A stretch of 4,005 nucleotides of DNA, from the IMG/VR virus record IMGVR_UViG_2778261417_000003; one strand, written 5' to 3'. The notes below the pieces were generated by a model. It had not been told where the DNA came from. It was given only the letters and a program-made list of their open reading frames with translations, and made no database searches. Each line of letters starts with the position of its first letter. The stretch's first letter is position 1. Origin of the DNA: a virus. Lineage: Duplodnaviria; Heunggongvirae; Uroviricota; Caudoviricetes. The position numbers were made by a program, and so were the translations under genes. Shown here piece by piece: positions 1 through 4,005 of this stretch.

Positions 1-474
1 AACTGTACGATTAAGGGCATGCTGGAGGCGAATCAGGTCAGAGGCGATTTTGTTAAAACAGTATCCAAATCATTCCCGAAGAAGGCTGGTACGTGGGGTA
101 ACACGGAAACACCAAACGGGACGGTTACAGTCACCATAAGCGATGATCATAACTTTGACCGTCAAATCATTATTCCGCCCATTATTTTTAACGGTGTGGC
201 GTATGACGATCCGGGGAGCGGAAATAACCCCGGAGGCACGCGATACACGGGTTATGGTTTTGAAGTTCGCAAAAACGGCGTATTAATCGCATCCAGAGAA
301 ACTAAAGGGGCCATTCCCGGTAGTTACAGTGCAGTTATTGATATGCCGAGTGGTGGTGGTAGCGTCACTCTGGAGTTTAAGATTTTCCAGAAAGGCAATC
401 AGGGGGCAGGCAATATCACCGACTGTACGGTGATTGTGACCAAAAAAGCCGCTTCCGGCATCAGTATTCGTTGA
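1..474 (+). CDS. J: C-terminal fragment (5'-truncated by the window edge) of a J-like tail tip / host-specificity protein (central tail fibre, receptor-binding end)
   Basis: Frame 1 is open from base 1 (aac tgt acg att aag ggc atg ...) to TGA at 472-474, so the ATG at 19 in the ORF track is internal, not the true start. The gene sits immediately upstream of lom and stf, which is the lambda late-region order J-lom-stf. The product is Gly/Thr/Val-rich and looks beta-rich, as expected for a fibre tip domain. Identity as J is by synteny and general resemblance, not a verified alignment. Confidence 0.7.
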   Translation, partial: NCTIKGMLEANQVRGDFVKTVSKSFPKKAGTWGNTETPNGTVTVTISDDHNFDRQIIIPPIIFNGVAYDDPGSGNNPGGTRYTGYGFEVRKNGVLIASRETKGAIPGSYSAVIDMPSGGGSVTLEFKIFQKGNQGAGNITDCTVIVTKKAASGISIR

Positions 475-492
475 AATTGTTATAACCCATAT

Positions 493-520
493 AAGGGCAC
501 CAGAAATGGTGCCTTTTTTA
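493..520 (+). terminator. Rho-independent terminator downstream of the J-like gene
   Basis: Hairpin with stem GGCACC (496-501) pairing GGTGCC (508-513), extendable by A/U and G/U pairs to AAGGGCACC / GGTGCCUUU, 6-nt loop agaaat, followed by a run of six T (514-519). The T-run is on the + strand side only, so it is oriented for + strand transcription. Confidence 0.7.
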
Positions 521-543: not shown

Positions 544-615
544 ATGCGTAAACTTTATGCCGCCATTTTTTCCGCAGCCATTTGTCTGGCCGTATCCGGT
601 GCGCCTGCATGGGCA
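544..615 (+). other. Predicted signal peptide of Lom (24 aa, cleavage after AWA)
   Basis: Basic N-terminus (MRK), hydrophobic core (LYAAIFSAAICLAVSGA), and an A-x-A motif (AWA) followed by SEHQ. Confidence 0.7.
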
Positions 616-1143
616 TCTGAACATCAGTCCACGCTGAGCGCGGGGTATCTTCATGCCTCGACGAACGTTCCCGGCAGTGATGATCTGAACGGGATTAACG
701 TGAAATACCGTTATGAGTTTACGGACACACTGGGGATGGTGACGTCGTTCAGCTATGCAGGAGACAAGAATCGCCAGCTGACCCATTACAGCGATACCCG
801 CTGGTATGAAGATTCCGTGCGTAACCGCTGGTTCAGCGTGATGGCGGGGCCGTCTGTACGCGTGAATGAATGGTTCAGCGCGTATGCGATGGCAGGCGTG
901 GCTTACAGCCGTGTGTCGACTTTCTCCGGGGATTATCTCCGCGTAACTGACAACAAGGGGAAAACGCACGATGTGCTGACCGGAAGTGATGACGGTCGCC
1001 ACAGCAACACGTCTCTGGCGTGGGGAGCTGGCGTGCAGTTTAACCCGACCGAATCCGTGGCCATTGATATTGCTTATGAAGGCTCCGGCAGTGGCGACTG
1101 GCGCACTGACGGGTTCATCGTGGGTGTTGGTTATAAGTTCTGA
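544..1143 (+). CDS. lom: Lom, an Ail/Lom/PagC-family 8-stranded beta-barrel outer-membrane protein (lysogenic-conversion / virulence-associated)
   Basis: The 199-aa ORF begins MRKLYAAIFSAAICLAVSGAPAWA-SEHQSTLSAGYLHAS..., which closely matches the lambda Lom sequence as I recall it. It has a typical Sec signal peptide with an AWA-SE signal peptidase I site, alternating amphipathic beta-strand segments, and a C-terminal ...VGVGYKF ending in Phe, the usual OMP beta-barrel assembly signature. Position between J and stf matches lambda. Confidence 0.92.
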   Translation: MRKLYAAIFSAAICLAVSGAPAWASEHQSTLSAGYLHASTNVPGSDDLNGINVKYRYEFTDTLGMVTSFSYAGDKNRQLTHYSDTRWYEDSVRNRWFSVMAGPSVRVNEWFSAYAMAGVAYSRVSTFSGDYLRVTDNKGKTHDVLTGSDDGRHSNTSLAWGAGVQFNPTESVAIDIAYEGSGSGDWRTDGFIVGVGYKF

Positions 1144-1169: not shown

Positions 1170-1196
1170 AGCCCGCCGGTTCAGGCGGGCTTTTTT
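1170..1196 (+). terminator. Rho-independent terminator downstream of lom
   Basis: Perfect GC-rich stem GCCCGCC (1171-1177) pairing GGCGGGC (1184-1190), closed by an extra A-T pair (1170/1191), 6-nt loop ggttca, then TTTTTT (1191-1196). It starts 27 nt after the lom stop codon. Confidence 0.85.
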
Positions 1197-1207: not shown

Positions 1208-4005
1208 ATGGCAGTAAAGATTTCAGGTGTACTGAAAGACGGCACAGGAAAACCGGTACAGAACTGCACAATCCAGCTGAAAGCAAAACGTAACAGCACC
1301 ACGGTGGTGGTGAACACGCTGGCATCTGAAAATCCGGATGAAGCCGGGCGTTACAGTATGGACGTTGAGTACGGTCAGTACAGCGTTATTCTGTTGGTGG
1401 AGGGATTCCCGCCGTCACATGCCGGGACCATCACCGTGTATGAAGATTCTCAACCCGGTACGCTGAATGATTTTCTCGGTGCCATGACGGAGGATGATGC
1501 CCGTCCGGAGGCACTGCGCCGTTTTGAGCTGATGGTGGAAGAGGTGGCGCGTAACGCGTCCGCGGTGGCACAGAACACGGCAGCCGCGAAGAAATCAGCC
1601 AGCGATGCCAGCACATCAGCCCGTGAGGCGGCAACCCATGCGACTGATGCTGCAGGCTCAGCACGCGCAGCCAGCACGTCAGCCGGACAGGCCGCGTCGT
1701 CGGCTCAGTCAGCGTCTTCCAGCGCAGGAACGGCATCAACAAAGGCCACTGAAGCGGAAAAAAGTGCTGCCGCTGCAGAGTCCTCAAAAAGCGCGGCGGC
1801 CACCAGTGCCGGTGCCGCGAAAACGTCAGAAACGAATGCTGCAGCGTCACAAAAATCAGCAGCCACTTCTGCATCCACTGCGACGACGAAAGCGTCAGAA
1901 GCCGCCACTTCAGCCCGGGATGCGGCGGCCTCCAAAGAGGCGGCAAAATCATCAGAAACGAGCGCAGCCTCGAGCGCCAGCAGCGCAGCTTCCTCGGCAA
2001 CGGCGACAGCAAATTCTGCGAAGGCGGCCAAAACGTCCGAGACGAACGCTAAGTCTTCTGAAACGGCAGCGGGACAGAGTGCCTCAGCTGCGGCAGGCTC
2101 AAAAACAGCGGCTGCGTCGTCTGCCAGCGCCGCGTCAACAAGTGCCGGGCAGGCCTCAGCCAGTGCCACCGCCGCCGGAAAATCGGCAGAAAGCGCCGCA
2201 TCATCCGCTTCAACAGCCACAACGAAGGCTGGCGAAGCCACTGAGCAGGCCAGCGCAGCAGCGAGGTCAGCTTCCGCAGCGAAGACATCCGAAACGAACG
2301 CGAAAGCGTCGGAAACCCGTGCAGAATCCTCAAAAACGGCTGCCGCATCGTCCGCCAGTTCGGCGGCGTCATCGGCATCATCTGCGTCTGCTTCAAAAGA
2401 TGAGGCGACCAGACAGGCGTCAGCAGCGAAGGGCAGCGCCACGACAGCATCCACGAAGGCGACAGAGGCAGCTGGCAGTGCGACGGCGGCAGCACAGAGC
2501 AAAAGTACGGCGGAATCCGCGGCAACGCGCGCCGAGACAGCGGCAAAACGGGCAGAGGATATTGCATCCGCCGTGGCGCTTGAGGATGCGAGCACGACGA
2601 AAAAGGGGATAGTCCAGCTCAGCAGTGCGACCAACAGTACGTCTGAAACGCTGGCGGCAACGCCAAAGGCAGTAAAATCAGCCTATGACAATGCAGAGAA
2701 ACGTCTGCAGAAAGACCAGAACGGCGCTGATATACCCGATAAGGGACGCTTCCTGAACAACCTTAACGCGGTCAGTAAAACAGACTTTGCTGATAAGCGT
2801 GGTATGCGTTATGTGCGGGTTAACGCTCCTGCAGGTGCAACATCTGGAAAATATTACCCTGTTGTTGTTATGCGTTCTGCTGGCTCAGTAAGCGAACTGG
2901 CATCAAGGGTCATTATCACCACGGCAACGCGAACCGCAGGCGATCCGATGAATAACTGCGAGTTTAACGGATTTGTTATGCCTGGTGGCTGGACTGACAG
3001 GGGGCGTTATGCTTATGGAATGTTCTGGCAATATCAAAACAATGAACGAGCCATCCACTCAATAATGATGAGTAATAAGGGCGATGATTTGCGCTCTGTG
3101 TTCTATGTTGATGGCGCTGCTTTCCCTGTTTTTGCGTTTATCGAAGATGGCCTGTCAATATCCGCACCTGGTGCTGATCTCGTTGTTAATGATACGACCT
3201 ATAAGTTTGGTGCAACAAATCCGGCGACTGAATGTATCGCGGCGGACGTTATCCTTGATTTTAAGAGTGGGCGTGGTTTTTATGAGTCTCATTCGTTAAT
3301 CGTTAACGATAACTTGTCGTGCAAAAAACTTTTTGCCACAGACGAAATTGTAGCGCGTGGTGGTAATCAGATTCGAATGATAGGTGGGGAGTATGGTGCA
3401 TTATGGCGTAATGATGGCGCTAAAACTTACCTGCTGCTTACCAATCAAGGTGATGTTTATGGTGGCTGGAATACATTAAGACCGTTTGCTATTGATAACG
3501 CAACCGGCGAGCTGGTTATTGGAACCAAACTGTCCGCAAGTCTGAACGGTAATGCATTAACAGCAACAAAGCTGCAAACACCAAGACTGGTTTCTGGGGT
3601 TGAGTTTGATGGTTCCAGAGATATTACTTTAACCGCCGCGCACGTGGCTGCTTTTGCCAGAAGGGCAACGGATACATATGCCGATGCGGATGGTGGCGTT
3701 CCCTGGAATGCCGAATCAGGCGCTTACAATGTCACCCGCTCTGGCGACAGCTATATTCTGGTTAACTTCTATACCGGAGTCGGAAGTTGCCGGACCCTGC
3801 AGATGAAGGCGCATTACAGAAATGGAGGTCTGTTCTACCGTTCCTCAAGAGATGGCTATGGTTTTGAGGAAGGCTGGGCAGAAGTTTATACCTCGAAAAA
3901 TCTTCCACCAGAAAGCTACCCAGTTGGCGCACCAATCCCGTGGCCATCAGATACCGTTCCGTCTGGTTATGCCCTGATGCAGGGGCAGACTTTTGACAAA
4001 TCTGC
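1208..4005 (+). CDS. stf: Side tail fibre protein Stf, long mosaic form, 3'-truncated by the window edge (at least 932 codons present)
   Basis: Hand translation in frame 2 from ATG 1208 shows no stop codon through base 4005. The N-terminus [62 protein letters not shown]... matches the lambda Stf N-terminus as I recall it. A long Ala/Ser/Thr-rich repeat region follows, then a central module, and the window ends in ...[29 protein letters not shown], which resembles the conserved lambda Stf / T4 gp37-type segment. The ORF track omits it because it lacks a stop in the window. The length and central module resemble the long Stf homologues of E. coli lambdoid prophages (StfR-like) more than lambda Stf itself. 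Confidence 0.9.
1820..2572 (+). repeat. Three imperfect in-frame tandem repeat units inside stf (about 210, 252 and 290 bp), each starting with the motif K-T-S-E-T-N-A
   Basis: The units start at 1820 (aaa acg tca gaa acg aat gct), 2030 (aaa acg tcc gag acg aac gct) and 2282 (aag aca tcc gaa acg aac gcg). Each also carries a recurring SSK-x-AAA-S/T-SA submotif (near 1778, 2093, 2321). Composition is almost entirely Ala/Ser/Thr with scattered Lys/Glu, and very GC-rich at the DNA level. Confidence 0.8.

Follow-up and report, generated by a model that had tools for sequence, protein, structure and literature searches.

The Ala/Ser-rich tract of a StfR-type side tail fibre gene as the probable proximal shaft, in its standard long form, of a lambdoid prophage fibre

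The window, that is, the whole 4,005-nt stretch of DNA that was analysed, carries the first part of a side tail fibre gene with a long Ala/Ser/Thr-rich tract, and this tract most probably (probability about 0.85) serves as the proximal shaft of a StfR-type (Rac) side tail fibre from a lambdoid prophage, the long form being the standard one. The real repeat unit of the tract is the heptad, and the three longer units that had been seen in it by the preliminary description, each starting with KTSETNA, have no detectable homology beyond the heptad pattern.

Gene order and domain structure of the fibre

The fibre gene lies directly downstream of J and lom, as is usual for the lambdoid tail module and in the same order as in lambda and Rac. 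Its earlier designation as stf was confirmed, and its type could be specified as StfR. The neighbouring genes and the domains of the fibre protein are located as follows.

19..474, + strand: 3' end of J (central tail fibre), C-terminal receptor-binding domain (Pfam PF12421 Ig_GpJ_C, E = 1.3e-26; gpJ is annotated there in E. coli records)
493..516, + strand: candidate hairpin of terminator type with a trailing T run, in the gap between J and lom (consensus scan)
544..1143, + strand: lom, Ail/Lom outer-membrane beta-barrel protein (Pfam PF06316, E = 1.1e-119, full length)
1170..1191, + strand: candidate GC-rich hairpin of terminator type with a trailing T run, 17 nt before the stf start codon (consensus scan; G-C in 7 of the 8 pairs)
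1208..4005, + strand: stf, StfR-type side tail fibre gene, start codon at nt 1208, first 932 codons, continuing past the window end (translation; match to K-12 StfR; stfR annotation in the best E. coli matches)
1208..1489, + strand: N-terminal collar domain, aa 1-94 (Pfam PF08400 phage_tail_N, E = 7.8e-72; PDB 9e7m, Ur-lambda Stf residues 1-94, E = 4.7e-52)
1544..2572, + strand: coiled-coil proximal rod of 49 heptads A-x-x-S-A-x-x, aa 113-455 (heptad listing, position counts, AF2 monomer, equivalents in the literature)
2606..2677, + strand: conserved 24-aa unit (Pf2-type tail-fibre repeat) after the rod (identical block in lambda; aligns to Mu tail fibre S, PDB 8ju3 and 5yvq)
3194..3493, + strand: T4 gp34-like trimerisation domain, aa 663-762 (Pfam PF21446, E = 2.6e-27; PDB 4uxe, 5nxf)
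3926..4003, + strand: start of a phage tail collar domain, aa 907-932, truncated where the window stops (Pfam PF07484, E = 4.9e-4; T4 gp37, PDB 2xgf, E = 1.9e-10)

PF08400 was matched over profile positions 1-134 of 134, and in Stf this N-terminal domain has the role of a collar docking the fibre on the tail tip (PMC12617516). The PF07484 score is under the curated cut-off because the domain is cut by the window end, and PF03406, which is precomputed for close homologues, gave no match at E ≤ 0.01 in the window protein with hmmscan. The collar domain (aa 1-94) is joined to the 49-heptad array (aa 113-455) by a short linker. As in the rest of the family, the Ala/Ser-rich heptad rod comes straight after the N-terminal domain and ends in a conserved 12-aa stretch and the 24-aa unit, the latter being duplicated in three relatives (L013, L042 and P0105).

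StfR of E. coli K-12 MG1655 (b1372, P76072), encoded by the cryptic prophage Rac, is 98% identical to the window protein over 932 aa without gaps, and has the same 49 heptads, KTSETNA at the same residues (205, 275 and 359) and the same downstream domains. It differs by about 2% substitutions, with 96.2% identity inside the tract, and its full length is 1120 aa; upstream of it, lomR is split by IS5, whereas lom is intact in the window, and tfaR lies downstream of stfR. A weak match was also obtained between aa 218-305 and residues 175-262 of T7 gp17, a part of the trimeric helical fibre shaft (E = 0.0043); this match is marginal and probably compositional, and gp17 has no N- or C-terminal domain in common with the window protein. 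The same succession of PfN domain (PF08400) and Ala/Ser-rich heptads (PCoil) occurs in EPclA and EPclB, collagen-like tail-fibre proteins of E. coli prophages (Ghosh et al. 2012, PMC3368898). Their PCoil is short (PfN-PCoil ends at residue 250), and after it come collagen triple helices, a feature absent from the window protein; a trimer was reported for EPclA, and the PfN-PCoil fragment is alpha-helical by CD (PMC3368898).

The heptad array, the KTSETNA motif and the overlapping reading frames

The Ala/Ser/Thr-rich character assigned to the tract earlier was borne out (Ala 37%, Ser 23%, Thr 12%). It consists of 49 uninterrupted heptads in a single register without a break, in which position 1 is Ala in 46 heptads, position 4 is Ser in 37 and position 5 is Ala in 35, and shift-7 identity reached 0.443 against 0.226 ± 0.020 in residue shuffles (z ≈ 10.6). 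Of the boundaries proposed for the tract (1820-2572), the end was retained, but the periodic part begins at nt 1544. Heptad periodicity is unbroken, as in coiled coils, but the hydrophobic a/d core (Leu, Ile, Val) is not found: the stripe is Ala/Ser/Ala at positions 1/4/5, with two occurrences of Val at position 1, and a small-residue Ala/Ser seam is atypical for coiled coils (PMC3368898). The tract works like a coiled coil, though not a canonical one. The AF2 single-chain model, for which no alignment was used, gave one continuous helix over aa 98-505 with modest confidence (mean pLDDT of 67.5) and, being a monomer, shows helicity only. PDB coverage of the fibre is confined to residues 1-94 (9e7m), with none at the tract. 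Ur-lambda has a trimeric fibre whose proximal coiled-coil domain spans residues 102-393, the rod resting on cryo-ET and AlphaFold3 (PMC12617516), and the Ala/Ser heptad PCoil after the PfN domain is alpha-helical by CD, trimeric and differs in length by multiples of seven (PMC3368898). By homology with these published fibres, three chains of the window protein would form a parallel alpha-helical coiled coil with a small-residue (Ala/Ser) seam, and the 343 residues of the array, at ~0.148 nm each, would extend over ~51 nm. Both the Ala/Ser pattern of the heptads and the change of length in multiples of seven are already known, having been published in 2012 and 2025.

The KTSETNA copies and the adjacent features of the array are located as follows.

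1820..1840, + strand: KTSETNA copy 1, aa 205-211, heptad 14 (AKTSETN) (motif listing)
2030..2050, + strand: KTSETNA copy 2, aa 275-281, heptad 24 (motif listing)
2282..2302, + strand: KTSETNA copy 3, aa 359-365, heptad 36, inside the segment absent from lambda (motif listing, lambda alignment)
2116..2430, + strand: segment absent from lambda stf, 315 nt = 105 aa = 15 heptads (protein and DNA global alignments)
2364..2382, + strand: 9-nt tandem repeat CGGCATCAT x 2.1, coding for part of a 16-aa stretch (Tandem Repeats Finder, TRF)

The preliminary description had counted three in-frame KTSETNA motifs against two in lambda, and both counts held: there are exactly three in the stf frame (aa 205, 275 and 359; nt 1820, 2030 and 2282), and two in lambda (aa 205 and 275 of the 774-aa Ur-lambda form, which was rebuilt from NC_001416). 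Identical AKTSETN heptads occur three times among the 49, against ~0.004 expected from the position-specific composition, and with three further near copies AKTSETN appears to be a recurrent heptad "word" of the StfR-type fibre family. The reading built on these counts, namely that three KTSETNA-initiated units of 70-85 aa make up a higher-order tandem repeat, one of them gained relative to lambda by unequal recombination or slippage, draws further support from the likeness, once a single heptad is skipped, between the heptad blocks that follow copies 2 and 3, and from the joining of two relatives (L045 and P0142) between two K-x-S-E-T heptads. However, the supposed units (70, 84 and ~97 aa here) were no more alike than randomly ordered heptads, whether this was assessed against heptad shuffles by fixed-shift identity (family-wise p = 0.41 for protein and 0.76 for DNA), by the best ungapped diagonal (p = 0.36 for protein and 0.67 for DNA) or by gapped heptad-level self-alignment (p = 0.22 and 0.70). 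The last procedure detected a clear 9-heptad block duplication in the positive control, the E. ruysiae locus L094 (p < 0.001), which is itself a point for expansion by block duplication. Moreover, TRF, which is blind to heptads as diverged as these (~44% identical at the DNA level), found in the whole window only the 9-nt repeat at 2364-2382 and no long-period array; two relatives (P0053 and P0078) are without 3 aa (SAS) in the stretch of this 9-nt repeat. Several synonymous sites set the copies of the motif apart (family D1, with 70-75% identity across 40 nt), and therefore none of them is recent. The segment absent from lambda (aa 304-408) is not bounded by KTSETNA, and the three-copy layout is the majority form. 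The number of motifs does not follow rod length, since 49-heptad forms with one or two exact copies and 31-33-heptad forms with four to six are found. The reading as three long units is thus already largely refuted for the window sequence, and we consider it improbable.

It is still less probable that the tract is a disordered low-complexity linker of Ala, Ser and Thr with no structured rod. The summed content of these residues (72%), the near absence of hydrophobic core residues and the modest confidence of the AF2 model would fit such a linker, but the strict seven-residue phase across 49 repeats, the continuous helix predicted and the indels of relatives, which are whole heptads or 3-4 residues, argue against it, as do CD, electron microscopy and cryo-ET on homologues, by which a helical trimeric rod was seen (PMC12617516, PMC3368898). 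A further alternative, that an overlapping antisense gene of the lambda orf206b type constrains the tract and keeps an antisense frame open, bears on the alternative frames. The tract had been described as open in every frame on both strands, and it was found that, of the six, four are open or nearly so in 1820-2572 and two are closed; the accompanying notion that the composition of the tract keeps several alternative frames open was correct. Three frames are free of stops, one antisense frame contains just one (2049-2051), one sense frame is closed by four stops (2050, 2059, 2242 and 2401), and one antisense frame has ~20, one per in-phase TCA Ser codon. Two long ORFs lie over the tract.

1705..2634, - strand: antisense ORF, 309 codons (ORF list; 1 stop observed against 1.3-1.5 expected by codon shuffle)
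1605..2612, + strand: +1-frame ORF, 335 codons (ORF list; synonymous shuffles give 0.0 stops)

The 335-codon ORF is a by-product of composition, the synonymous shuffles giving 0.0 stops because hardly any codon has T at position 2, and the 309-codon ORF is best read in the same way rather than as a gene. What favours an antisense gene is that antisense CDSs are annotated on the tract in the records of lambda and phage ev099, and that one antisense frame contains one stop against 8.1 ± 2.3 in synonymous-codon shuffles (P ≈ 0.0008, a value overstated because T|A depletion can be inherited among related heptads), with the same trend in lambda (0 against 4.4) and L094 (4 against 8.8). Nevertheless, this stop deficit equals the shortfall of T|A at codon boundaries (4 against 12.2), the frame is interrupted at nt 2049-2051 of the window and is cut by the 15-16-heptad indels of relatives, and the translated products are Ala-rich low-complexity strings. 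No antisense frame intact and conserved across alleles was thus found, the other long antisense ORF agreeing with the compositional expectation. An antisense gene was rejected as the main explanation, with the frame broken in the window and the effect reducing to T|A depletion among non-independent repeats, and we regard it as extremely improbable.

Length forms of the shaft and the direction of change

The lambda (Ur-lambda) Stf of 774 aa has the same J-lom-stf gene order, a collar domain of 93% identity, a heptad array that likewise begins at aa 113 and keeps the same register, the same first two KTSETNA motifs and the same end, with the 12-aa stretch and the 24-aa unit; identity over the tract is 81%. 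The distal halves are unrelated, lambda passing straight into its distal domain, whereas the window protein has gp34-like and Mu S-like modules, and orf-194 lies downstream of stf in lambda. The fibre is indeed longer here than in lambda, but not by one extra unit of 70-85 aa: the gap is exactly 315 nt (nt 2116-2430) in both protein and DNA global alignments, i.e., 15 heptads, and this block, which begins 29 aa past the second KTSETNA and stops 43 aa past the third, is not bounded by the motif and is therefore not "one extra unit". Between the anchors VARNAS and AEDIASA, there are 336 residues here and 231 in lambda (48 and 33 heptad steps), and the lambda array of 34 heptads (238 residues, ~35 nm) is shorter by ~15.6 nm. 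Microhomology at the lambda junction is only 1 nt in the window sequence, a figure that is uninformative because the flanks have diverged (87% and 81% identity).

The long form, taken as at least 80% of the 1493-nt query, is present in 3570 of 5426 complete E. coli genomes and in 19 phage records, and the window is matched end to end, at 97.0-97.4%, by the J-lom-stfR regions of many E. coli genomes. The layout of 49 heptads with three KTSETNA was found in 60 of the 82 loci examined, in samples that favour the long form, since the relatives were taken by rank of similarity to the query. With a junction-specific query, used as a proxy for a tract-length census over 15,883 E. coli matches, the lambda junction was detected in 97 E. 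coli genomes, of which 96 match lambda at 99% identity or above. The 49-heptad, three-KTSETNA form is thus the standard, and lambda is the unusual short one; the description of the tract as expanded was misleading, because K-12 StfR and the majority share its layout and the lambda junction is nearly confined to lambda.

Among 92 cluster representatives, the tracts range from 0 to 49 heptads. When aligned with the 49-heptad form, relatives show gaps of 15 or 16 entire heptads at seven positions (4-18, 14-28, 15-29, 28-42, 29-43, 20-35 and 30-45), with 4-7 nt microhomologies at the inferred break points; intermediate deletion sizes are almost absent from the sample, and slips of 3 or 4 residues are rare. 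Comparison of these relatives shows that rod length changes by in-frame loss of whole heptads. Of the unequal recombination or slippage proposed earlier, in-frame length change was confirmed, and L045, P0142 and P0174, which make up one variant class, are joined exactly between two K-x-S-E-T heptads, the outcome to be expected of unequal recombination between motifs of this kind; at the same time, no expansions were seen among the relatives, and the events of readable direction were contractions from the long form. At least three short variants nest inside the diversity of the long forms (88-100%, median 96.5%, n = 190) and are therefore recent, independent deletions (P0137, 98.7%; L045, 98.3%; P0142, 97.4%; P0138, 95.4%); short variants are present in several independent genomes. 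At or outside the edge of this diversity are lambda (83% to the nearest long form), P0129 (92%), P0160 (84%) and P0141 (84.5%).

An older origin of the long form should be considered here, in which a 33-34-heptad ancestor gained 15 heptads once and the 49-heptad product then spread; in such a case, unequal crossover could have taken place between diverged 34-heptad alleles with different middles (heptads 14-28 and 29-43). Distant relatives do cluster at 31-34 heptads (P0169, P0175, P0182, L094, P0153 and P0154), which agrees with a short ancestral rod that gained 15 heptads long ago, the 190 long forms are all collinear, as expected from a single origin, and several 15-heptad gaps share the boundaries 13|14, 28|29 and 43|44, as though 14-28 and 29-43 were alternative versions of one segment. 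However, heptads 14-28 resemble heptads 29-43 no more closely than random heptads would (shift-15 identity of 0.408 against a null of 0.405), the gaps 4-18, 20-35 and 30-45 do not fit a two-segment scheme, and at least three short forms clearly derive from long ones. The contig search for outgroups returned mostly lambda contamination contigs and Escherichia or Shigella fragments, with few useful outgroups. An ancient expansion is accordingly possible, but we consider it unlikely. Slightly favoured is the view that the shorter rod of lambda represents a contraction or an old alternative allele, rather than that the window carries a recent expansion.

Significance for fibre length and annotation

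The layout of the window protein is that of the reference K-12 StfR, and both the shaft and its variation in multiples of seven are already in print, so that little weight attaches to it as a discovery. What is corrected is a likely misreading: the lambda shaft is unusually short, and the KTSETNA count is no gauge of shaft length. For annotators, the antisense and +1-frame ORFs on the tract (lambda orf206b, ev099 hypothetical proteins) are most likely compositional artefacts. For fibre engineering, the natural tolerated deletions are 15-16 whole heptads, or slips of 3-4 residues.

Additionally, since 15-16-heptad gaps recur with no sequence homology of that period able to drive them, rod length may conceivably be held at discrete classes of 33-34 and 49 heptads (~35 and ~51 nm) by selection for two fibre reaches, instead of drifting freely, although we see this as a rather doubtful proposal. 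If it were true, the two reaches could be matched, for example, to cell-surface layers or to tail-tip geometry, and fibre reach would be a testable selected trait.

The heptad array and the search for a larger unit

The window carries the following features, in window nucleotides or, for the fibre protein, in residues (aa).

19-474: 3' end of J (PF12421)
493-516: terminator-like hairpin on one side of lom
544-1143: lom (PF06316)
1170-1191: terminator-like hairpin on the other side of lom, ending 17 nt before the stf start codon
1208 to window end: stf, the side tail fibre gene, 932 codons
Fibre protein: prophage tail fibre N-terminal domain (PF08400, E = 7.8e-72)
Fibre protein, aa 663-762: T4 gp34-like trimerisation domain
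Fibre protein, aa 907-932: tail collar domain, beginning only

Expression of stf would presumably need read-through of the hairpin at 1170-1191, which is terminator-like by sequence. The J-lom-stfR regions of many E. coli genomes match the window end to end at 97.0-97.4%, and StfR of the E. coli K-12 Rac prophage is 98% identical to the window fibre protein, with zero gaps.

From aa 113 (nt 1544-2572), the protein runs through 49 heptads of the form A-x-x-S-A-x-x without interruption, with Ala at position 1 in 46/49, Ser at position 4 in 37/49 and Ala at position 5 in 35/49. Self-identity at a shift of seven residues is 0.443, against 0.226 ± 0.020 for shuffled residues, and the DNA repeat families of the window have spacings that are mostly multiples of 21 nt. 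The motif KTSETNA occurs exactly three times in stf, in frame, at aa 205, 275 and 359 (nt 1820, 2030 and 2282). The preliminary description read these copies as the starts of three units, apparently with an extra unit of about 70-85 aa relative to lambda, for which it gave only two; both counts of the motif were correct, since Ur-lambda Stf (774 aa, rebuilt from NC_001416 for comparison) has copies at aa 205 and 275.

As units, however, the three segments found no support. With heptad order shuffled, a control that preserves the heptad pattern but abolishes any longer repeat, no larger unit was detected by fixed-shift identity (family-wise p 0.41 for protein, 0.76 for DNA), by the best ungapped diagonal (p 0.36 and 0.67) or by gapped heptad-level self-alignment (p 0.22 and 0.70), and Tandem Repeats Finder reported in the window only a 9-nt repeat of 2.1 copies (2364-2382). 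The gapped test has power, since it was significant (p < 0.001, protein and DNA) for the Escherichia ruysiae locus L094, whose protein contains a real 9-heptad duplication. The window repeat is a heptad coiled-coil array rather than three long units. Both L094 and L103 (Escherichia sp. E1V33) have 33-heptad, AKTSETN-rich rods (tract aa 113-344) with this clear 63-aa internal duplication, significant in DNA; block duplication thus happens in this family, though none was detected in the window.

Within the window tract AKTSETN recurs as a heptad word, in three exact copies and in variants (AKASETR, and 14 protein letters not shown). Chance does not explain three identical copies (calculated expectation ~0.004 from position-specific composition), and because they differ at several synonymous sites (DNA repeat family D1, 70-75% identity across 40 nt), no copy is recent.

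Lambda and the prevalence of the long form

Lambda Stf aligns with the window protein without gaps to aa 303, lacks a counterpart to the next 105 window residues (aa 304-408) and then aligns again; in DNA, the gap is exactly 315 nt (window 2116-2430). The extra piece is accordingly 15 × 7 residues and not a unit of 70-85 aa, nor is it bounded by KTSETNA: its start lies 29 residues past the second motif, its end 43 residues past the third.

A 1493-nt query from the start codon to past the tract is present, at a coverage of at least 80%, in 3570/5426 complete E. coli genomes and in 19 phage records (ev099, 2H10 and mEp460 among them); the E. coli matches listed have no gaps and are mostly annotated stfR. 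Among 82 loci (80 from IMG/VR, lambda and ev099), 60 have the window spacing and three KTSETNA. Complete matches to a 160-nt query across the lambda junction were counted in only 97 E. coli genomes, 96 of them at ≥ 99% identity; BL21 and other K-12-type laboratory strains are among the four full-length matches listed, which suggests lambda or DE3 lysogens. The long form (49 heptads, three KTSETNA) is thus the norm and the short rod of lambda the exception, in samples ordered by query similarity and hence biased toward the long form. To call the window "expanded" relative to lambda was misleading, because the standard StfR layout is the three-KTSETNA long form and the events whose direction could be read are contractions.

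Lambda stf was also seen in assemblies labelled Leeuwenhoekiella, Pseudomonas, Desulfosporosinus, Shewanella, Oceanobacillus, Kitasatospora and others (L085-L093, L095-L102 and others), on contigs often of ~48.5 kb with coverage of ~1; one such locus, L085, when translated, has the laboratory orf-401 frameshift form. The 48.4-kb "Campylobacter phage CJLB-4" record (H35 in the phage-record search) is matched with coverage and identity equal to those of lambda. Such records appear to reflect contamination with lambda control DNA, or mislabelling. The NCBI name "short-chain fatty acid transporter, partial" on four partial StfR proteins (P0015, P0023, P0032 and P0037) is an evident annotation error.

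Reading frames across the tract

The preliminary description also held that every frame on both strands is open here. Within 1820-2572, three frames (stf, +1 and one antisense) contain no stop and a further, near-open antisense frame is interrupted once (2049-2051), but one sense frame has four stops and the codon-phase antisense frame ~20, one per TCA codon. Most of this openness is a consequence of composition. The near-open antisense frame has 1 stop against 8.1 ± 2.3 in synonymous-codon shuffles, because T|A is depleted at codon boundaries of the tract (1544-2572; 4 occurrences, where synonymous shuffles give 12.2; P about 0.0005, with shuffle P values overstated by the common descent of the heptads). 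The trend is also present in the tracts of lambda and L094. An NCT codon is followed by a codon starting with A in 1/29 cases in the window tract; in lom, J and elsewhere in stf, the T|A depletion is weaker or not seen.

As a gene, the near-open antisense frame was rejected, being interrupted in the window. Annotated antisense to the coiled-coil tract are orf206b in lambda (L001 2648-3268 (-)) and three "hypothetical protein" CDSs in ev099 (L002 3937-5360 (-)), all of which are probably compositional artefacts. The ev099 record has no stf CDS annotated across the N-terminal domain and rod.

Rod length and the direction of change

In 92 cluster representatives (clusters at 50% identity; N-terminal domain present, ≥ 330 aa), tract length ranges from 0 to 49 heptads, with modes at 33, 34 and 49, and exact KTSETNA copies number 0-6. 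The motif count does not track tract length: 49-heptad forms with one or two exact copies (L021, L042, P0161) occur, as do 31-33-heptad forms with four to six (P0153, P0154, L094). Heptad-level alignment to the window placed the gaps of the shorter relatives as follows.

Whole-heptad gaps relative to the window (heptads 1-49 numbered from aa 113)
Relatives; missing heptads; number
lambda; 28-42; 15
P0129, P0130, P0290; 29-43; 15
P0137, P0158; 14-28; 15
P0138, P0271; 15-29; 15
P0141; 4-18; 15
P0142, P0174, L045; 20-35; 16
P0160, P0284; 30-45; 16

The gaps lie at seven different positions with sizes clustered at 15 or 16 heptads, and no intermediate size was seen among close relatives except a single-heptad loss (P0158). 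The inferred break points have in-register microhomology of 4-7 nt, the junction of the 20-35 class lies exactly between two K-x-S-E-T heptads, and short variants are present in several independent genomes. No 15-16-heptad homology that could explain the clustering was found.

The 190 long-form tracts share 88-100% identity (median 96.5%). Compared with their nearest long forms, P0137 (98.7%), L045 (98.3%), P0142 (97.4%) and P0138 (95.4%) fall inside this range and are therefore recent deletions from long-form parents; lambda (83%), P0129 (92%), P0160 (84%) and P0141 (84.5%) lie at or past its edge. Most distant relatives have 31-34 heptads, so that a single old gain of 15 heptads may have occurred; among the long and short forms compared, no case of recent expansion was seen.

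Changes of other sizes correspond to classical coiled-coil stutters and stammers: P0054 has 3 aa more than the window, L025 4 aa more, and P0053 and P0078 lost 3 aa (SAS) in the stretch encoded around the 9-nt repeat. This repeat, the only DNA-level tandem repeat of the window, encodes part of SSASSAS, and the losses in the same stretch point to a small slippage hotspot at which the heptad register is shifted by a stutter. Past the rod, some relatives (L013, L042, P0053, P0054, P0105) carry two or three tandem copies of a unit of 14 residues, T/S and 29 residues (letters not shown); its copy number is a second, independent route to fibre length change.

Each Ur-lambda side fibre is reported to be a trimer, built from N- to C-terminus of collar domain (residues 1-91), linker (92-101), proximal coiled coil (102-393), hinge (394-422) and a distal domain of coiled coil (423-525) followed by the receptor-binding domain (2025 study, PMC12617516); PDB coverage is of residues 1-94 only (9e7m). 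The same N-terminal domain and the same kind of Ala/Ser region, named PCoil, were described with a seven-residue periodicity, length differences in multiples of seven, alpha-helical CD, a transition near 50 °C that was cooperative and reversible, and, by electron microscopy, a trimeric rod (Ghosh et al. 2012; PMC3368898). A single-chain AF2 model of window aa 95-520 gave a single unbroken helix (aa 98-505) with modest confidence (mean pLDDT 67.5). At ~0.148 nm per residue, the 49-heptad array would be ~51 nm long and the 34 heptads of lambda ~35 nm, a difference of ~15.6 nm.

The essentials of the window tract were thus already known from the literature and the K-12 reference protein. The one point of mild interest left is that independent deletions cluster at 15-16 heptads, alongside two apparent length classes.
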